Source: a virus (Duplodnaviria; Heunggongvirae; Uroviricota; Caudoviricetes). From it: 44,763 nucleotides of DNA. The position numbers were made by a program, and so were the translations under genes. The notes under the pieces are model-generated. The model was not told the DNA's origin and did not search any database. It saw only the letters and a program-made list of their open reading frames with translations. This document shows, one piece after another, positions 4,446 through 44,763 of the stretch. Each line of letters begins with the position of its first letter. Positions within the stretch are counted from its first letter, which is position 1. The stretch spans positions 1-44,763 of the IMG/VR virus record IMGVR_UViG_3300030310_000017, one strand, 5' to 3'.

Positions 4446-4766
4446 TTAGTAGGGGATTTCATCAGTATCTGGCGTGTATTCGATGCAAAGTAACTGCTGG
4501 ATTTTGTCATCGATAGCAGCAATACGCTGTTGGGCGTCGGCGGCTGTATTCTGTTTTTGCTCACGCAGCTGCTCAACCTGTAAACCGATGATGTCGATTG
4601 GCTGGGGCTGGTTGACGGTAATTTCAATTTCGCGGCTTTCCAGAAGGATGTACCTGTCTGGAAAATTTTTTGACATATCAACTGTCGCAATAAACAGCTT
4701 TTCATGGCTGAAAGTTGAAGTTGCATAATGAATAAAGAGTGTTACTGGGATGGTGCGCGCTTCCAT
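4446..4766 (-). CDS. Hypothetical early protein
   Basis: 106-aa ORF, first gene of the leftward early operon after the ORF-poor leader. Confidence 0.45.
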   Translation of the reverse strand: MEARTIPVTLFIHYATSTFSHEKLFIATVDMSKNFPDRYILLESREIEITVNQPQPIDIIGLQVEQLREQKQNTAADAQQRIAAIDDKIQQLLCIEYTPDTDEIPY

Positions 4767-12621: not shown

Positions 12622-13545
12622 TTATTGGTTTCTGAGGAAAGCGATTCTTGAAAGGGTCATTTGCGTCTGGCAGTCGACCATTTTCTTGACTTCAGCATCT
12701 GTTCCCTGCATTGAAACTTTACCGCACATAGCATCCTTAGTTTTGATCCACTGACGCTGAGAAGGCAGCAACTCTTTTTTCTTCGCCGGCGTTAACCTGC
12801 CCCAGACTGTATTCAAATCAGAGTCAGCATTCGCAAATGCCATTCGGGACTGATCAAGGCTTTCAGCTTTTTGCGGCTGAAGTTGTGCCTGCCTCTCTAT
12901 TTGCTTCTCCGCCTCATACCTGGCCTGTTCCTGTGCCCTGAGTTGCACCTGTTGTTCCGCTTCAATTTGACTCTGTTGGGCATCCTTAGCCTGCTGGATT
13001 TTCTGCTGCTCAACGATCGGGTTGATAATGGAAAGCGATGTCAGTAAAGCGGCGCCCACTGATATCGGATTATCAGAAGAGGTTTTTACAAAAACGTTTT
13101 TCTGATCGTCGGTCGCCTGCACGGTGTAGGTGATACGTTTTGAAAAGGCGTTTGCGTTGTTCTCCAAAAACAGATTTTCCATTTGCTTATCGAGATTACG
13201 ATTAAAATTCTTTCTGTAAGCATCAGAAAGCTGGACGTACTCGTTCGCAGGTAGAGTCATCGTCACGGTCCCTTCACAAGTTTTCATTGTGCTGCCCGTG
13301 TCACTTGATATTGTGGAGATTTCAGAGACGGCTAGTTTGATCTTGTCCAGTGTGCTTCGTTTGGTCTGATTAGTGACATCAGGGTATTTATCGACCTGTT
13401 CAGAGAGTCCTTCATAAGCAAATTTTTTTAATAAATCCATGAGAGCTGATTGGGTCATTTCCGAAGAACAACCGATCTCATCTTTTTTGTTATCACAGCC
13501 TGTAAGGGCAATGGCGAGTAAGAGTACTGAGTATTTTAATCTCAT
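12622..13545 (-). CDS. Lipoprotein with a C-terminal DUF1311/LprI-like (lysozyme-inhibitor-like) region and a Gln-rich coiled-coil middle
   Basis: The signal peptide ends in a lipobox (LLAIALTGC). The C-terminus (WIKTKDAMCGK...MVDCQTQMTLSRIAFL) resembles the DUF1311 pattern. The gene is AT-rich, reverse-oriented and sits inside the repeat-bracketed island. Confidence 0.6.
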   Translation of the reverse strand: MRLKYSVLLLAIALTGCDNKKDEIGCSSEMTQSALMDLLKKFAYEGLSEQVDKYPDVTNQTKRSTLDKIKLAVSEISTISSDTGSTMKTCEGTVTMTLPANEYVQLSDAYRKNFNRNLDKQMENLFLENNANAFSKRITYTVQATDDQKNVFVKTSSDNPISVGAALLTSLSIINPIVEQQKIQQAKDAQQSQIEAEQQVQLRAQEQARYEAEKQIERQAQLQPQKAESLDQSRMAFANADSDLNTVWGRLTPAKKKELLPSQRQWIKTKDAMCGKVSMQGTDAEVKKMVDCQTQMTLSRIAFLRNQ

Positions 13546-14301
13546 GAATTCCCTTTAGAGTAAGGATTGGTTTTTAAGACGCGGTCTGTAATCAGTTCCG
13601 AAAGCTACAGTAAACAACGCTGAGCACTGAACGCATCACAGGCAAGGTAAAAGGTGATATCGGCAAAGGCTGTGAAACCTTTAATTCAACAGATGGGAAC
13701 GGTATGCACAGGATCCTGTAACGACGCTCCCAAAACCGGAAACCTGCAGGGCATGTTTTCGCTGCTGAACTTAATATACGAACCTGCACTATCATGAACA
13801 TATTTTATATCGTTATACCCCGAGTGATTGTGCCCGGCAATGGATAGTGTCCTGGAGGAATTATTTCTAATGTAAAAGGAAGATATTTAATTTCGATGTG
13901 GGATTATTACCTGTCTATAAGAACAATGACTTTATCTGGCAGTAAGCAGACATCTATTAGCTTACTGAAGGGGGGCTGTGATTTGACCATTAACGGCATG
14001 AGATATATTGTCTATTGGTGATTGTTCTGAGGCCGATATCACGTTAACGACCAAGTAAAATAACATGAAAAATTATTTATTAATGATTGCCAGCATTAAA
14101 TGTAGTGATACCTCATTAGCAGGGTGCTCCGCAATGACTGCGATGAACTAAAAAATCAGTCATAACCATGAAAAAAACAAGTGTATCAGCGAAATTAAAT
14201 CTGGTGAAAGCATTTAATTACTTGTTAATGACGCAATAAAAACATACTATGGAAATGTAACAGCTAATCTACAGTTCTTGTCAATAGGGGCGCACAAGAA
14301 A

Positions 14302-14892
14302 ATGTTAAATGAATTTAAGGAAAAGCTACTATCCGACGATATCCGCGATGTCTACCAACGATACCTTTTAGGACATGACATCTGGTATTTTCGGGAACAA
14401 AAAAAATCAATAACCTTTGCTAAAGATTATGATGAGTTTAAGCTATATATGTCTAAGAAGCTTGAAATTCATGTAAATAATATTGCAATTGTTGGAAGTG
14501 CTAAGATGGGATTCAGCTTGAGCCCTGATAAAAATTATCGAACATTTAACGATGAGTCAGATATAGACTTGGTTTTAGTATCCGACAGAATTTATAAATC
14601 TTCCTGGATGGCATTTATTGAATTACAATCAAAGAATTATTTGCCTGTATATGCTCCTGTAGCTAAAAATATTTTCAAAGGATTCGTGTCATTGAAGGAG
14701 TTAGATATTAGAGTCGATTTTTTTAATAAATGGTCCCGTAACGTTGAACCATTAAAAAAAGACATTCAAACTATTTTTGGAATACCTAACGACATCAACT
14801 ACAGAATTTATGACTCTTGGGAGTCCGTTGAACGCTATCACATAGCTGGGTTGAATAGTCTAAAAGATAAGTTACAAGGACAATTGATATGA
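14302..14892 (+). CDS. Minimal nucleotidyltransferase-fold protein (Pol-beta superfamily; MNT/SMODS-like)
   Basis: Contains a GS...D-x-D signature (IVGSAKMGFSL...DESDIDLVLV). Very AT-rich coding. The stop overlaps the start of the downstream DUF262 gene (ATGA). The track's TTG start at 14278 is an alternative to the ATG at 14302. Confidence 0.55.
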   Translation: MLNEFKEKLLSDDIRDVYQRYLLGHDIWYFREQKKSITFAKDYDEFKLYMSKKLEIHVNNIAIVGSAKMGFSLSPDKNYRTFNDESDIDLVLVSDRIYKSSWMAFIELQSKNYLPVYAPVAKNIFKGFVSLKELDIRVDFFNKWSRNVEPLKKDIQTIFGIPNDINYRIYDSWESVERYHIAGLNSLKDKLQGQLI

Positions 14893-15947
14893 GAGCTATT
14901 GATCTAATTAAAGTTGAATCGAAAGACATTAAATGGTTGACGGATAATTTGAAATCAGGTGTTATTACAGTTGATAATTCATATCAGAGAAAATATATCT
15001 GGCAGCAAAAAGACCAAGTGGCCTTAATTGAGACAATATTAATTGGCTACCCAATCCCTGAGATTTACCTTTGGGCAAATAATACTGATCCTGACACTGG
15101 AGATACTAAATATTCAATTGTAGATGGACAGCAAAGGCTAACCACAATCCAGCGATATTTAAATGATGAGTTTAAGTTAAGCAAAGCAGCTATAGATGAT
15201 AAAGAAGCCGACTATAGTGGGAAAATTTTTTCAGAATTGTCGGCAGATAACAAACGTGATTTTTGGCGATACCAATTCTCATCCAGATTTATTAATGAAT
15301 CATTGAGATATGATGAGATTGCAAAGTTATTTTTACGTCTAAATAGAACAAATACTACGTTAAATCCTCAAGAACTTCGTAATGCTGAATTTAATGGCGA
15401 GTTTTTAAGATTAGCCGAAGAAATTGCACAAAATGAATTTTGGGATAATTATAAGATATTTACTCAGTCAGATATCCGTCGGATGCAAGACATTCAATTC
15501 ATCAGCACATTATTGATTTTCTTACGAATGGGTATTGAGCAGGATAATACACAAAAATCAATTAATCGAGTGTATGATCAATACAATGAGAATTACCCTG
15601 AGGCGACTGAGGACAGAATTGTCTTTAACGAAGTGTTAAGGATCATATCTCAAATTATCAACAATAAACAAGTATTAGAATCAGTTGTAAAGAAAAAAGG
15701 CCATTTGTATTTTATATTTGTGCTGGCATACTATTATTTACAGCTTAGTAAATCTAAGCTTGTTGATATGAATGTTATTAGTTCAAAGCTCGAGGATTTT
15801 TTTAATATTTATGAGTTAAATGAACAAGATAACCCCCATCCACTGGTTGAGGAATATAGATTCCTCAGCCAAGAGGGTTCAAAGAAGAGTCATAACAGAC
15901 AGCGTAGATTTGATATTTTGAAAGAATTTTGCTCTTTACATGATTAA
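14889..15947 (+). CDS. DUF262 (ParB/GmrSD N-terminal-like) domain protein without a recognisable DUF1524/HNH nuclease domain
   Basis: Carries the hallmark motifs QRKYIWQ...LIETILIGYPIPEIYLW...YSIVDGQQRLTT. At 352 aa it ends in a helical extension rather than a nuclease domain. An AAGGA ribosome-binding site is upstream. Confidence 0.75.
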   Translation: MRAIDLIKVESKDIKWLTDNLKSGVITVDNSYQRKYIWQQKDQVALIETILIGYPIPEIYLWANNTDPDTGDTKYSIVDGQQRLTTIQRYLNDEFKLSKAAIDDKEADYSGKIFSELSADNKRDFWRYQFSSRFINESLRYDEIAKLFLRLNRTNTTLNPQELRNAEFNGEFLRLAEEIAQNEFWDNYKIFTQSDIRRMQDIQFISTLLIFLRMGIEQDNTQKSINRVYDQYNENYPEATEDRIVFNEVLRIISQIINNKQVLESVVKKKGHLYFIFVLAYYYLQLSKSKLVDMNVISSKLEDFFNIYELNEQDNPHPLVEEYRFLSQEGSKKSHNRQRRFDILKEFCSLHD

Positions 15948-16201
15948 ATGACGAAAGTGGGTTGTTTATAAGAATTGAATAAACAACCCATCATTTTAAT
16001 GTACTCTGAATCCTCTCATTCTTAGTGAAATATTGTTTTTAGAACACGTATTGACGTTAGAACAAAAAATAGATTTTTTTGTGATGTATTACGTTGGAGT
16101 TGATGGGATAATTATATGTTTTCAATACATTGTTAATTTATCAAGACCCTGCGACTAAGGTGTTCGAAAATCGACTAAAGTCTGTTTCATAGAGAGAGTT
16201 A

Positions 16202-34765: not shown

Positions 34766-35392
34766 ATGACAAGTCAAAGCGTACTGCCTCCGAACGCAAT
34801 AACCCCCGAGAGAGCGCTGGAATCTGTTTTATCTCACGTTGGCGATCTGCCTGGCGATATTCGAATTATTAAAAATCCCGATTTGTGTCCTGCAAATCTG
34901 TTGCCGTGGCTGGCGTGGGAATACGCCGTCACCTACTGGAACCCCGACTGGAGCGAGCAGCAAAAACGCGAAATTATTAAAGCAGCTGCGTGGCAGAACA
35001 AGCACCGCGGAACGCGTGGAGCTGTTGAACGAGCGTTATTAACAGTTGGATTTGAGAGCAAAATGAGAGAGTGGTTCGAAGCCGCGCCCAGGGACGACCC
35101 GTATACATTCGCAATTAAAATATATCTGCTAAAAAGTATGGGGTTAGATTTAGAGCTATTGAATACATTTATTGCACAAATATTTGATGCAAAAAATTGT
35201 CGCTCTTTATTAAAGGAAATAAATTTCGAAACAGGTGTGGAAGGGGAATTTTTTATAGCTGGAACTCCTTACACAAAAATAGGCGTAAATATACCGGCAG
35301 ATGGTGATGGTGGCGTGAAATTAAATGGCGGATTATATATGTCAGGCTCGCCAATCGTGAGTCTGTTAGTGGAGATTGGACCCAATGGCTAA
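34766..35392 (+). CDS. Tail protein, P2 gpI-like
   Basis: Contains NPDLCPANLLPWLAWEYAV, close to the P2 gpI motif NPDTCPANLLPWLAWAFSV. Confidence 0.75.
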   Translation: MTSQSVLPPNAITPERALESVLSHVGDLPGDIRIIKNPDLCPANLLPWLAWEYAVTYWNPDWSEQQKREIIKAAAWQNKHRGTRGAVERALLTVGFESKMREWFEAAPRDDPYTFAIKIYLLKSMGLDLELLNTFIAQIFDAKNCRSLLKEINFETGVEGEFFIAGTPYTKIGVNIPADGDGGVKLNGGLYMSGSPIVSLLVEIGPNG

Positions 35393-36338
35393 ATTAAAAT
35401 CAAATCTGAAAGCTAACGCGAGCCAAGTTTATGCGGTGCTGACAGACCGTGGCGCGCAATTAGAAGCTGCGGCGCTGGCGTCAGGCGTGCCGGTAGTGCT
35501 AAATAAATTCGTTATTGGTGACGCGAACGGAAATGACGACGTAACACCAGACCCGGCCAGAACGGCATTAATTCACGAGACGTATCGCGGAGATATTAAA
35601 TCGTCAGAAAATAGCGGTAATCAGGTCATTTTTACACTGTACGTACCGCCGGAAACCGGCGGTTATACCATCCGCGAGGTGGGGATATTAACAGATAAAG
35701 GGGAACTGTACTCAGTTGCACGTTCACCGGATATTTTAAAACCTACGGACAGCAACGGCGCGCTGATTTCAATCACGTATAAATACACTCTCGCGGTGTC
35801 CAGCACGTCTACTGTTAACGTTGTTATTGATAACAGTAGCGGAATGAGCCAGGCAGATGCCGATAAACGATATTTGCAGATAGGTAAAAATTTATCTGAA
35901 ATTAAAGATAAAGGCACGGTGGCGCAAAAAACGGCGCGAGAAAATATCGGCGTAAATCTTGATAATTATTACACCAAAGAAGACGTTGATGATTTAATTG
36001 ATGCTAACGATGACCCTGCACCGGCGGTGCCTGCGTTTGCAGCTGTCGGCTCAGTTGTTTATGCTGGATTTACATTCGATAACTCTACTGTAATGCACTA
36101 TAAACCTGGTGATCAGTTACAAGGTTCGATAATTTCCCCTGCATGCATTCAATGGAAATATACCGGAGGTGTCGGCTCTATGAGCGAAGCCACGCTTACG
36201 CTAACTTTTGGAAGTGAGCCATTGCCTGGTATTTGGCAATTGTGCGGACTGATCCCCCAGAGCTATGAGCCATCTTCCGGGGCTGGTGAAGATATCTATA
36301 CTGGCAAATTTGCAACTAATTTCACGAGGATAGCGTAA
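35376..36338 (+). CDS. Tail fibre protein, P2 gpH-like N-terminal domain
   Basis: N-terminal region (ALIHETYRGD...FTLYVPPETGGYTIREVGIL) matches the conserved gpH N-domain. The start may be the ATG at 35385. Confidence 0.75.
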   Translation: MDPMAKLKSNLKANASQVYAVLTDRGAQLEAAALASGVPVVLNKFVIGDANGNDDVTPDPARTALIHETYRGDIKSSENSGNQVIFTLYVPPETGGYTIREVGILTDKGELYSVARSPDILKPTDSNGALISITYKYTLAVSSTSTVNVVIDNSSGMSQADADKRYLQIGKNLSEIKDKGTVAQKTARENIGVNLDNYYTKEDVDDLIDANDDPAPAVPAFAAVGSVVYAGFTFDNSTVMHYKPGDQLQGSIISPACIQWKYTGGVGSMSEATLTLTFGSEPLPGIWQLCGLIPQSYEPSSGAGEDIYTGKFATNFTRIA

Positions 36339-36343
36339 AACAA

Positions 36344-36577
36344 ATGATAACAATTGATAACTTTTCAAATATAAAAACACAGCGCTATTCCAGCGCATCG
36401 AATAACAGTATTGATATTGTCTGTGACATACAAGGGATCGGTAATGCTATTTTATTTACTGCATCTAAAACAGACTCCACATTATATGGCCGAGAGTTAT
36501 ACGAGCGCGCCGCTTGCGGTGAATTTGGTGATGTTGCTGAATATGTGGCTCCAATTATAATCGAATCAGGAGAGTAA
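36344..36577 (+). CDS. Hypothetical small protein (tail-fibre assembly candidate)
   Basis: 77-aa ORF between the fibre and sheath genes. Confidence 0.3.
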   Translation: MITIDNFSNIKTQRYSSASNNSIDIVCDIQGIGNAILFTASKTDSTLYGRELYERAACGEFGDVAEYVAPIIIESGE

Positions 36578-41469: not shown

Positions 41470-42513
41470 ATGAGTGATTACGTAAATACTGGCGTGGAAG
41501 CATGGAAGCCCAATTTTTATATATCTGCTGATAATGAAAACATCACGGATAAAATAAGAAAAGGTTTGATCAATATCACGCTCACAGATTATGGTGGTTC
41601 GAGTAAACAGACAGACGAATTACGCGTAGCAATCGTTTCTGAAACTCTGAAAATTCCGGCCCGCGGAGTAAAAATCAGTATTGGGCTCGGTTTCGGTAAT
41701 CAGATAATTGATAAGGGTGTATACATCGTTGATGGTGCGAGCAGTGGCGGTGAACCCCGGGTAGTTGATTTCACAGCAAAAGCAGCTCCGATGAACGCAT
41801 CAAAAGGCTCTCCGACAGTTCAGAGCAAAAAAACTCGCTCCTGGAGCGACGTCACTGTCAGCAATATCGTTGCAACAATAGCGAGCGATAACGGGCTAAA
41901 ACCTCGCGTATCAAAGCGGTTTGCAGACAACATTATCACGCAGCTCGATCAAGTCGGCGAGTCAGATATGCACCTGATGTCGCGGCTCGCAACGAGATTC
42001 GATGCGGTGAGTAAACCCGCGGGCGGGTACTGGATATTCCTGCCGCGCGGCGCGGGCGAATCTGTTAGCGGAGCACCGCTTCAGCACTACACGCTCACGC
42101 GTCGTGATAACTCAAGCTGGGGTTATTCGAGAAATGGACAAAACGGTGATAGTGGCGGAGGTGGCGAAAATGCGGAGCCAACGTATTTGATCAAATATCA
42201 CGATACAGCAACGGGGCAGATCAAAGAATTGCGTACGGGCAGTGGCGGCGATCCTGTAATCGAGTGGCCGGCAGTGGAGCCGTCGCTTGATGCAGCGAAA
42301 GAAGCTGCGCCAGGACTCAAGGGCGGTGCAGCTAAAAAAGAGTTCTCCATGACTTACACGACGCCCGCGACGCTCGATTTAGTATCGCTGACTGCAGAAT
42401 GCAAAGTCACAACACAAGGATTCGGGACAGAGGAGGACCGAGACTGGACAATCAATACGTTGACGCTGACGCTGGCTGAAAACGGATTCTCTGCGCGACT
42501 GTCGCTGGAGTAA
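41470..42513 (+). CDS. Tail protein, P2 gpD-like (late control D family)
   Basis: 347-aa protein with an N-terminal region resembling gpD, located after the gpU/gpX genes. Confidence 0.8.
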   Translation: MSDYVNTGVEAWKPNFYISADNENITDKIRKGLINITLTDYGGSSKQTDELRVAIVSETLKIPARGVKISIGLGFGNQIIDKGVYIVDGASSGGEPRVVDFTAKAAPMNASKGSPTVQSKKTRSWSDVTVSNIVATIASDNGLKPRVSKRFADNIITQLDQVGESDMHLMSRLATRFDAVSKPAGGYWIFLPRGAGESVSGAPLQHYTLTRRDNSSWGYSRNGQNGDSGGGGENAEPTYLIKYHDTATGQIKELRTGSGGDPVIEWPAVEPSLDAAKEAAPGLKGGAAKKEFSMTYTTPATLDLVSLTAECKVTTQGFGTEEDRDWTINTLTLTLAENGFSARLSLE

Positions 42514-42518
42514 ATGAA

Positions 42519-44315
42519 ATGGCAATAATATCGGGTGTATACGCAAATGGGGTCGGCGAGCCCGTTGTCGGCGTTCAGTTAGTATTAACAGCACGGGGCA
42601 CGAGTTCACGCGTAGTAATGACCACTGTTGTAGAGCAAGAAACAGGCGCGGCGGGTGAGTACAAATTTGATATGAAGCCCGGAGTTTACGTTGTCACTGC
42701 TAGTGCGGCATATCTCGGCGTGATTAACGTTAACCCGGACAGTGTTGACGGCACGTTAAACGACTATTTGACTAATTTTAGCGCAGACGAACTGACGCCA
42801 GCTGCGTTGGCGGAGATCCAGGAACTCGTTGCCACAGCACAAGCCGCTGCCAGTGTTGCCAGCGCCGCCGCCGCTGCTGCTGCGCAGATTTCGACGGCAG
42901 CGGCAGGGAGCGCCAGATTTGAGAATTTTGACGAAATTATCAATGTCAATACAACAGCAATGCTGGAGCTGGAAAAACCGGAGGTGTTAGATCCGGATAT
43001 TGCAATAACTATCACAGAGACGATTAATTATAACTATATTGGCCCGGTAAACGGATTTTGCGACGTTACTAGCCCGCTTGAATATAAAATTCAAATGTAC
43101 GCCTACACAACAGGCGAATATTTTAACGGCGAAACAAATTTAACAGCGGACGGGAAGTTTTCTTTTAAACGTTCCTGGGCTGGTGCAAAACAATTCAGAT
43201 TGGTGCGCGTAGCAGATAGTAAATGGATCACTACGCTGGAATACCCGCTGTGTATTCGCAGTTACTGGATGCCCGCTGACGCCGATCCCGAGGTAGTCAG
43301 CGTCATGAAAGACCGTTGCTACACATATGATCAGGCGTGCGCGGCGCTGGCACTCATGGCGCAGAATCACGAGGCGGTAGAGCGTTATGTTACGGGTCTG
43401 TGCGCCCTGGTGGGTGAAAACGGCGGCATTAAATTTTTTGTTAACCGGCTGTCCGCACAGTCCTCCCGCGAATATTACCGCACGGGTAACGCGGCGTGGG
43501 TGTTGTACGCCCTGGCATTCTATCTGAGCAAATACCCTACCGGCAGTAACGCTGAGTTAGCGCGCGCGAAATTAAACGCCGGGCTAACCTGGCTGGACGG
43601 TCTGAAGGTTGACGCCAGCGGCGACCCGCGCCACGGCTTATACATGGGCGGCAACGGTAAATATCTGGAGGACGGATCATTTGATCCGAATTATGTTGCG
43701 ACCTGGTGCGCGCTCGAGCACAACGTTGATATTTATTTTTTATTCGAACTCGTTGGACGGTTAACCGATTTTACCGGATACGAACTGCGAGCCACCACGC
43801 TGGCTGCAAATATCGTGGAAAAATTCTGGATTGAGAGCGAGGGGCGATTCCGGCAGGGCGTGCACATTGACGGCCCGGACAACGCCGCAGCGCTGGATCA
43901 ATCGAGTTGGGGCGGGATATTCGCAGTAAAAGCCGCGCCGGAGTTGGCGGAAAAATGCCGCCGTTATATGGAAAGATTCCGGTTCGGCACACTGGAGAGC
44001 ACCGGTTATACACCGTATCACCCGGACTACGGATACAGCGGCCATAGCCGTGGCGTGTGGACCGAGGGTACAGCGGGTGTAGCACTATTCGAACGTGCGC
44101 TAGGGAACGAGCAGAGAGCTACCGATCTGATCGCGGGATTAAAACCACTGCGTAATGAATACGGCTATCGCGACTCATGCGACGATAAAAAATACGACAC
44201 ACTGCCGGACTGGCCGTCGACTACAAACACCGCTTGGGTTATTTTAACATGCAAGCCGGCGGGGTTTTGGTGCGTAGATTTCCCGGTATTGGACGTTGGT
44301 ATCGTCAGGTACTGA
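42519..44315 (+). CDS. Tail fibre / receptor-binding protein with a lambda Stf-like N-terminus and an enzyme-like C-terminal domain
   Basis: N-terminal ~130 aa (ISGVY.NG.GEPV...TLNDYLT) resemble the lambda side-tail-fibre N-domain. This is followed by an Ala-rich linker and a ~400-aa globular domain rich in W/Y/D/E that is not fibre-like. Confidence 0.65.
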   Translation: MAIISGVYANGVGEPVVGVQLVLTARGTSSRVVMTTVVEQETGAAGEYKFDMKPGVYVVTASAAYLGVINVNPDSVDGTLNDYLTNFSADELTPAALAEIQELVATAQAAASVASAAAAAAAQISTAAAGSARFENFDEIINVNTTAMLELEKPEVLDPDIAITITETINYNYIGPVNGFCDVTSPLEYKIQMYAYTTGEYFNGETNLTADGKFSFKRSWAGAKQFRLVRVADSKWITTLEYPLCIRSYWMPADADPEVVSVMKDRCYTYDQACAALALMAQNHEAVERYVTGLCALVGENGGIKFFVNRLSAQSSREYYRTGNAAWVLYALAFYLSKYPTGSNAELARAKLNAGLTWLDGLKVDASGDPRHGLYMGGNGKYLEDGSFDPNYVATWCALEHNVDIYFLFELVGRLTDFTGYELRATTLAANIVEKFWIESEGRFRQGVHIDGPDNAAALDQSSWGGIFAVKAAPELAEKCRRYMERFRFGTLESTGYTPYHPDYGYSGHSRGVWTEGTAGVALFERALGNEQRATDLIAGLKPLRNEYGYRDSCDDKKYDTLPDWPSTTNTAWVILTCKPAGFWCVDFPVLDVGIVRY

Positions 44316-44343
44316 CAATTATAATTTTTGGAGTTTTTTATAC

Positions 44344-44763
44344 ATGGTCGTTAAAAATATTCTTGCCTTTGGGATTATGTGTGCGCTTGCTGGTTGTGCA
44401 ACCAAGCCAGTCTCAAACGAGCAGGCTACTCCCGTTCCAGAAAAACAGGTAATCAATAGCGCAATACTCGAAAAAAGAGATGGGACAGGAGAGGTGATCA
44501 TCAAGCGTGATTCGGGTTTCTTTGGGAGCGCGTGCTTTTCCCGTGTTTATGTTGATGGTAAAGAGGTGGCAGATTTAGGTACAGCTCAGAAAGTCGTTGT
44601 ATACCCAACGATTGGTGATCATGTCTTCAGCGCGTGGCCAAAAGGAGTATGTGGTGGTGGCATGAGTGAGCAGGCGGGCAAGGTGACAACAGATCGTACT
44701 TTGATGTATCGCATAGGTTACGGTTCAAACGGTGAATATGGCATTCACCCAACTGCGTTTTAA
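44344..44763 (+). CDS. Lipoprotein (terminal moron)
   Basis: An ATG at 44344 and a signal peptide with a lipobox (IMCALAGC). It is the last gene after the tail fibre and its stop is at the window end. Confidence 0.5.
   Translation: MVVKNILAFGIMCALAGCATKPVSNEQATPVPEKQVINSAILEKRDGTGEVIIKRDSGFFGSACFSRVYVDGKEVADLGTAQKVVVYPTIGDHVFSAWPKGVCGGGMSEQAGKVTTDRTLMYRIGYGSNGEYGIHPTAF

Follow-up and report, generated by a model that had tools for sequence, protein, structure and literature searches.

The side tail fibre (Stf) of Ur-lambda is held on the virion by 12 anchors that make a collar at the gpV/gpM junction; residues 1-91 of the chain correspond to the collar, beyond which the chain continues through a flexible linker into a trimeric coiled coil (PMC12617516). 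Laboratory lambda lost stf by a frameshift (PMC12617516). In this study, we analysed IMG/VR record IMGVR_UViG_3300030310_000017, a caudoviricete sequence of 44,763 nucleotides (positions 1 to 44,763, hereafter referred to as the window), and examined a gene at its right end that encodes a 598-residue protein with an Stf-type anchor and a head of a different fold. The protein is considered to be a dispensable second tail fibre of a temperate Escherichia coli myovirus, whose head likely cleaves glycans; we estimate the probability of this reading at roughly 60%.

Compared with Ur-lambda Stf (PDB 9e7m and 9mgh), the 598-residue protein has a homologous β-sandwich anchor, 42% identical over 81 aligned residues, which likewise leads into a linker and helix. 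Both proteins are accessory and appear dispensable. Their genes come last among the tail genes and are easily lost, in laboratory lambda by the frameshift and here by a deletion that left a scar. However, lambda Stf has a long coiled-coil shaft and a fibrous gp37-like tip that binds OmpC, and it depends on the Tfa chaperone. In the 598-residue protein, the shaft is very short and the head is a globular (α/α)6 domain; no chaperone gene accompanies it, and it is encoded after gpD in a P2-like tail rather than after J-lom.

The classical depolymerases, namely the endorhamnosidases of P22, Sf6 and HK620, the K1F endosialidase and the K5 lyase, follow the logic proposed for this protein, in which a modular anchor carries an enzymatic head; theirs degrades O-antigen or capsule and sets the host range. 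Their heads are trimeric right-handed β-helices, β-propellers or triple helices, whereas that described here is an α-helical barrel. Engineered lambda Stf anchors carry the enzymatic K1F and K5 heads (PMC11338833). Among predicted phage depolymerases, the α/α toroid makes up about 1% or less, and current predictors leave it out for lack of examples (PMC11326577, PMC12491483). Our literature search found no characterised bacterial-phage fibre with an (α/α)6 head. A precedent is the tailspike VP4 of SSV19 (PDB 7xdi), which contains a GH76-like (α/α)6 domain; SSV19 virions hydrolyse a host glycan, and the VP4 barrel is the presumed source of this activity (PMC12042106). VP4 differs from the present protein in that its GH76-like endo-mannanase domain is part of a 137-kDa protein of a sevenfold-symmetric archaeal fusellovirus tail, with another anchor and a host from another domain of life, and no sequence relationship was detected between the two.

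Domain organization and fold of the fibre protein

The gene and the parts of its product are as follows.

42519-44315, + strand: accessory (second) tail-fibre gene, 598 residues, ATG start, stop codon included (list of open reading frames)
42519-42788, + strand: residues 1-90, Stf-type N-terminal β-sandwich anchor ("collar" domain) (PF08400, PDB 9e7m and model)
42789-42914, + strand: residues 91-132, Ala-rich linker/helix (47.6% Ala; helical in the model)
42915-43268, + strand: residues 133-250, short helix and small β-sandwich before the barrel (AlphaFold2 strands at 162-241, predicted local distance difference test score (pLDDT) >90)
43269-44312, + strand: residues 251-598, (α/α)6-barrel, glycosidase-like head (AlphaFold2 model, Foldseek)

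The preliminary description of this sequence had given the open reading frame exactly, in coordinates, strand, start codon and length. It had also taken the first ~130 residues for a lambda Stf-like anchor and placed an Ala-rich linker behind them, and both assignments were borne out. PF08400 (phage_tail_N, "Prophage tail fibre N-terminal") matched residues 3-126 with E = 4.3e-24 and 85.5 bits against a cut-off of 26.6, and the N-terminal domain of lambda Stf (PDB 9e7m, E = 4.7e-9) was the only significant sequence match of the 598-residue protein to a solved structure. In the AlphaFold2 model, the β-strands of the anchor span residues 2-71. The shaft segment comprises ~40 residues, compared with ~290 in lambda Stf; the Ala-rich residues 91-132 probably form a trimerising coiled coil.

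The whole protein matched PHROGs annotated "tail fiber protein" (phrog_13714, phrog_7032 and phrog_4128; E = 4.5e-215 for phrog_13714). It is intact and 98% identical to a 608-residue RefSeq protein of E. coli strain GF43, from which it differs by the absence of 10 residues (TEARQNAAAA) in the Ala-rich helix (window 42870-42875, residues 118-119) and otherwise only by the substitution E318K. The indel represents a length polymorphism of the shaft. A cluster at 90% identity that is 98% identical to the 598-residue protein (P0001) contained 53 member sequences.

The AlphaFold2 model was computed from a 53-sequence alignment (A3) of enterobacterial homologues and distant ones. The distant homologues were gathered with a profile of the copies in Microbacterium, Coprococcus and Thermus phages; a search with a mixed profile returned mainly close enterobacterial matches, and the profile of the distant phage copies alone supplied the diversity. 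The mean pLDDT was 89 and the predicted template modelling score (pTM) was 0.78, with nearly all of residues 140-598 above 90. Between residues 257 and 578, ~12 helices were arranged as a twelve-helix double-layered barrel. When the model was compared with the PDB using Foldseek, nearly all of the top 50 matches were carbohydrate-active (α/α)6 enzymes, including members of glycoside hydrolase (GH) families GH76, GH78, GH116 and GH63, AGE-type epimerases/isomerases and a GH15-like dextran dextrinase, with E values of 1e-9 to 1e-5 and identities of 8-15%. The α/α-toroid, glycoside-hydrolase-like fold anticipated in the preliminary description was therefore right at the level of the fold. In the BFVD viral structure library, one true relative was found (F9VHN7), and the next barrel matches were giant-virus enzymes of the GH15/debranching type.

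Since the modelled C-terminal part consists of a β-sandwich and a helical barrel, a β-helix, a collagen-like fibre and a gp37-type tip were ruled out, as the preliminary description had foreseen for the first two; no Beta_helix or Pectate_lyase Pfam match was found in the protein, nor a β-helix in the model. The ~400-residue C-terminal domain proposed there is indeed globular, but it is divided into two domains, the β-sandwich and a barrel of ~345 residues. The aromatic richness claimed for this part was confirmed: F+W+Y make up 14.3%, compared with 8.0% for eight other structural proteins encoded in the window. Its acidic content, however, was ordinary (D+E 12.2% against 12.0% in the same comparison).

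The head is comparable to MmpH, the methylmannose-polysaccharide endo-mannosidase of M. hassiacum (PDB 7qsj), and to GH15-type enzymes (dextran dextrinase 9ju0, 5z3a, glucoamylase 1lf6, glucodextranase 1ulv; clan GH-L) in having an (α/α)6 barrel with an acidic funnel. Clan GH-L comprises GH15, GH65 and GH125. Bacterial GH15 enzymes also place an N-terminal β-sandwich ahead of the barrel. Unlike the present head, MmpH and the GH15-type enzymes are cytoplasmic or secreted metabolic enzymes and not virion parts; the identity to them is 9-15%, with no Pfam or PDB sequence match.

Conservation of the head and candidate active-site residues

An exhaustive profile search returned 2,115 clusters at 50% identity with E <= 1e-3, 499 of them with E <= 1e-30, and the family extends from E. 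coli to phages of Microbacterium/Actinobacteria, Lachnospiraceae/Firmicutes and Thermus. For the analysis of conservation, we aligned 75 representatives whose identity to the window protein is 19-46% and whose hosts have unrelated envelopes. E400, D460, G302, G323 and L459 were invariant in all 75, and S248, Y270, D271, W396, H401, D454, W464, W514, E516, G517 and W573 were conserved in at least 95%. R321 and N402 were also conserved, as were G179, G222, K224 and R247, which together with S248 lie in the β-sandwich region (133-250). The residues considered as candidates for the active site are listed below.

43329-43331, + strand: codon of D271, part of a Y270-D271 motif where the first inner helix starts; carboxylate proposed for catalysis or substrate binding (D271 95%, Y270 99%)
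43716-43721, + strand: codons of E400-H401, part of a W396-x3-E-H-N-x-D motif where the third inner helix starts; residues proposed for catalysis (E400 invariant, H401 97%)
43896-43898, + strand: codon of D460, part of a D454-x5-D460-x3-W464 motif where the fourth inner helix starts; carboxylate proposed for catalysis (D460 invariant, D454 97%, W464 99%)
44064-44066, + strand: codon of E516, part of a V-W514-x-E516-G motif where the fifth inner helix starts; proposed as the catalytic base (99% conserved)

Enzymes with an (α/α)6 barrel build their catalytic funnel at the N-terminal ends of alternate (inner) helices. In the model, the conserved residues were found in or just before the first turn of helices H269, H322, H399, H459, H515 and H568, that is, of every second helix; D271, R321, E400/H401, D454/D460/W464, W514/E516 and W573 stand at these starts and are 77-100% conserved. 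The retention of the same carboxylates from E. coli to Actinobacteria, Lachnospiraceae and Thermus hosts suggests shared chemistry rather than shared receptor contacts. MmpH is a proven inverting endo-mannosidase in which Asp47 is the acid and Glu262 is the base (PMC9883506). Judged by proportional position along the chain, D271 might correspond to Asp47 and E516 to Glu262, although this is a guess. For G1d, within the GH15/clan GH-L group, the catalytic acid and Glu base are E430/E628.

The head (~130-598, 50-75% identity) was found behind N-termini containing PF08400, PF12571 (P2 gpH-type), PF18668 (TSP1/gp66-type), PF25613 or PF03406, and also alone. It also occurs in a jumbo coliphage, in "minor tail proteins" of Microbacterium phages and in Thermus phages, and in a Coprococcus phage its gene lies directly ahead of the lysis genes. 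The anchors of the myovirus copies that follow gpD are 78-88% identical to one another but 34-45% identical to those of lambda-type copies, whereas the heads are 65-75% identical whatever the anchor; these different patterns indicate that anchor and head evolve independently. Furthermore, 6 of the 14 long members scanned carried fused calcineurin-like (Metallophos) or PhoD phosphoesterase domains, and other fusions in long members included four CBM56 modules, Ig-like domains, collagen repeats and a podovirus nozzle protein. The fusions of phosphoesterase and barrel hint at a joint attack on phosphodiester glycopolymers, e.g. teichoic acids or phosphoglycan capsules. Among distant members, the barrel was repeatedly located downstream of the calcineurin-like/PhoD-type phosphoesterase (P0264, P0273, P0282, P0287, P0296 and P0298).

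Placement in the prophage and loss in relatives

The window is an almost complete prophage with an integrase (1-1029), a DnaB-type helicase, lambda-like head genes and a P2-like contractile tail, the module of which encodes the V, W, J and I baseplate proteins, a PF12571 fibre, sheath, tube, tape measure protein, gpU, gpX and gpD. The preliminary description did not mention this contractile tail: the gene stands after gpD and not in a lambda-type tail. The features that bear on its placement are as follows.

41470-42513, + strand: gpD-like baseplate hub/late control protein D, last canonical P2-like tail gene (phrog_52 "tail protein", E = 1e-92; PF05954 weak)
42507-42510, + strand: GGAG, Shine-Dalgarno-like motif 8 nt 5' of the fibre-gene ATG (sequence reading)
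35376-36338, + strand: primary P2 gpH-type tail fibre with PF12571 anchor (PF12571 E = 1.3e-31; many "tail fiber" PHROGs)
44344-44763, + strand: conserved phage lipoprotein with lipobox L-A-G-C, right end of the prophage (phrog_890 "lipoprotein", E = 4e-52)

The gpD-like homologue is annotated "tail formation protein D" in vB_EcoM-720R5. The ATG of the fibre gene was read 5 nt past the stop codon of the gpD-like gene, and this spacing together with the GGAG motif suggests that the gene is co-expressed with the tail operon, as its last gene. Since a primary PF12571 fibre is present in the same phage, the 598-residue protein is regarded as a second fibre. The downstream lipoprotein matched no Pfam or NCBIfam model and is not a Tfa/Caudo_TAP (PF02413) chaperone; it is kept in relatives without the fibre gene. 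We take a lipoprotein beside receptor-binding genes to be reminiscent of the Cor/Llp-type superinfection-exclusion lipoproteins. A terminator-like hairpin (44295-44316) and a promoter-like site (44296-44325; 10/12 sigma-70-like), which overlaps the end of the fibre gene, are consensus matches only and were not relied on.

The placement of the second fibre after gpD was also observed in another lineage at a different chromosomal site (L010, 75% protein identity). In the commonest variant (L013-L015), the gene follows Baseplate_J, a fibre and Caudo_TAP; in P2/HP1-like prophages (L016-L017), it follows the primary fibre and Caudo_TAP. None of the homologues in L010-L017 has a chaperone gene of its own. 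The lambdoid phage phiSTEC1575-Stx2k carries a 59%-identical homologue after J-lom, likewise with no chaperone gene of its own, and in all of these settings the protein is again a second fibre.

Relatives that share the tail end were compared. The second-fibre gene is absent from isolated relatives, vB_EcoM-720R5 among them. Of 477 E. coli genomes sharing the tail end, 449 matched only at 90-95% identity; among the matches listed, coverage was 53-61% of the query, and the genomes inspected lacked the fibre gene. In 720R5, a match to codons ~9-24 of the window gene was found right after the gpD stop (81% identity, E = 1.5e-5), and downstream homology began inside the 3' end of the gene, 26 nt in 720R5 (E = 6e-49) and 100 nt in strain HCP5S3_I2 (E = 5e-53). 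The scar consists of codons ~9-24 joined to the last 30-100 nt of the gene.

L007 14088-14133 and 14201-14260, and L009 5503-5680: scar remnants, equivalent to window 42545-42591 and 44216-44315

HCP5S3_I2 carries the scar behind a 307-residue replacement fibre with an 88%-identical anchor; in this slot, the anchor is thus joined to an unrelated 307-residue C-terminus. The 5' and 3' remnants in the relatives without the gene indicate that it was ancestral in the lineage and was deleted repeatedly or once early, and they rule out the insertion of a foreign gene into an originally empty slot. As judged from these genome comparisons, the fibre gene appears to be dispensable, like lambda stf.

Several other observations were made in the same region and elsewhere in the window. 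The primary fibre is short (320 residues, compared with 394 in vB_EcoM-720R5), and the matches of a 77-residue open reading frame behind it (within 35376-36577, + strand) to "tail fiber" PHROGs are confined to their N-terminal part; at this position, GF43 has a 192-residue assembly protein. The primary-fibre cassette also appears to be swapped or truncated in this lineage. A low-GC island at 14000-16000 (33% GC, compared with ~50% elsewhere) contains a 352-residue open reading frame with a GmrSD_N/DUF262 match (14889-15947, + strand; E = 1e-24) and an overlapping upstream one of 204 residues with no Pfam match (14278-14892, + strand); this island looks like an anti-phage defence moron in the prophage. 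At its edge, a 307-residue open reading frame (12622-13545, - strand) has a C-terminal LprI (lysozyme inhibitor) domain (E = 5e-8). In the sister lineage L010, an Imm_superinfect (PF14373) gene lies on the opposite strand between gpU and gpX (4472-4714, - strand).

Proposed function and rival explanations

We infer the following course of action, from trimeric state and virion attachment to catalysis, hydrolase chemistry and substrate. The Stf-type β-sandwich (1-90) would anchor the protein to the tail and the Ala-rich helix (91-132) would trimerise it, with every chain ending in a head of β-sandwich and (α/α)6 barrel. A surface glycan, such as O-antigen, capsule or lipopolysaccharide (LPS) core, would be bound by the head in the funnel that the six inner helices form with their N-terminal ends, and a glycosidic bond would most likely be cleaved there by acid/base catalysis via D271, E400, D460 and E516. 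Cleavage would let the virion cross the polysaccharide layer until the primary P2-type fibre and the baseplate engage the cell. The protein would then work like a depolymerase-tipped fibre, unusual in the fold of its head and in having an Stf anchor on a contractile tail. The role of receptor-modifying depolymerase and host-range determinant, put forward in the preliminary description, is consistent with the invariant carboxylates, the enzyme fusions, the anchor swapping and the SSV19 VP4 precedent.

Several findings weigh against a glycan-cleaving fibre. No Pfam or NCBIfam model, including PF00723 or any other GH model, matched residues 130-598. The phmmer and profile searches of PDB sequences (alignment A1) returned nothing for the head, and a PDB profile search with alignment A4 gave marginal matches to squalene-hopene cyclase (E = 0.006) and cellobiose 2-epimerase (E = 0.05). 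The (α/α)6 superfamily also holds epimerases, phosphorylases, cyclases and lyases. The presumed sharing of one pocket by the conserved residues was read from the order of helices along the chain, and helix 94-130 was modelled, as a monomer, at a low pLDDT of 51-61. Furthermore, the lambda Stf anchor binds the gpV/gpM tube junction (PMC12617516), which is differently exposed on a sheathed P2-like tail.

GH15 and GH125 were not found in the PDB profile searches of the head, and a GH-family assignment by sequence was dropped since the Pfam, NCBIfam and PDB searches gave no or marginal matches. Among the 75 relatives, the only GH signals were faint MGH1-like matches in three (best E = 0.0055) and a GH88 match in one. 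Like the marginal matches to squalene cyclase and cellobiose 2-epimerase, these faint signals stay within the six-hairpin superfamily.

The head might instead be a non-catalytic receptor-binding domain, a glycosidase-derived, lectin-like scaffold that binds carbohydrate or protein. Enzyme-derived structural proteins can lose activity (PMC12042106), no curated GH family matches by sequence, and binding alone suffices for lambda Stf (OmpC) and for Gifsy-1 Stf (LPS core Gal II). We nevertheless consider this unlikely, since the residues of a binding site should vary with the host, yet from E. coli to the phages of Actinobacteria, Firmicutes and Thermus the same carboxylates, His and Trp residues recur in all or at least 95% of the representatives, with E400 and D460 lost in 0 of the 75, and the phosphoesterase and CBM fusions look like catalytic modules. 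A catalytic head need not be a hydrolase: a polysaccharide lyase, an epimerase/isomerase or a phosphorylase/transglycosylase could modify the receptor glycan on the same scaffold. In this regard, the E-H-N-x-D motif of the family aligns on the catalytic-His motif of cellobiose 2-epimerase within the weak profile match mentioned above, and the conserved Y270, H401, R321 and N402 resemble the Tyr/His/Arg/Asn catalytic sets of toroid lyases (PL5/8/12/15/17/21). However, AGE enzymes need a pair of catalytic histidines, and an AGE-type epimerase was rejected because H401 is the sole His conserved in at least 75% of the representatives. Moreover, it is not obvious what a virion would gain from the chemistry of an intracellular-type sugar isomerase, and the best compact match, MmpH, is a proven endo-hydrolase; non-hydrolytic chemistry therefore seems distinctly improbable.

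A different explanation concerns the gene rather than the chemistry. It might have been picked up from a lambdoid prophage through recombination at the end of the prophage and be a passenger, whose product is not in virions or is a released or lysis-associated enzyme. The site to which the lambda PF08400 anchor binds, the gpV/gpM junction, is without a counterpart in the P2-like tail; the gene is located at the extreme right end of the prophage beside a lipoprotein moron; it is lost in most relatives; and its closest homologue in an isolated phage belongs to a lambda-type tail. Against this stand the translational coupling to gpD and the recurrence of the arrangement after gpD in the second lineage (L010). 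The anchors of the myovirus copies form a similarity group of their own, and the intact reading frame and the 53 sequences of P0001 also speak against a passenger. Finally, the retention of an 88%-identical anchor with a different 307-residue head in the same slot means that the anchor was kept while heads were swapped, which is the signature of a functional fibre. The passenger explanation consequently appears very improbable, and a dispensable second fibre with a likely glycan-cleaving head remains the preferred reading.

Tentatively, and at somewhat below even odds, the proposal can be widened. The head may found a new and large GH family (>2,000 clusters at 50% identity, without a Pfam model). 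Phages that infect Proteobacteria, Actinobacteria, Firmicutes and Deinococcota would use at least five kinds of tail anchor to carry it and cleave glycans on the host surface, often together with a phosphodiesterase. Here, a lambda-type Stf collar may have become able to dock on a P2-like contractile tail, which would be a previously undescribed mode of attachment. The placement on a contractile tail raises the question of where the Stf collar docks on a sheathed tail. The family has been annotated just as "phage tail protein", and it offers thousands of α/α-toroid examples for predictors of depolymerases and receptor-binding proteins, which are now trained on β-helix, β-propeller and triple-helix folds. 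The head is also compact, apparently independent of a chaperone and naturally compatible with the Stf anchor of engineered delivery particles. If the head is active, it would represent a new enzyme family with uncharacterised glycan specificities, and it would account in part for the host range of common prophages in E. coli, Salmonella, Citrobacter and Yersinia, one of which is an Stx2k phage.

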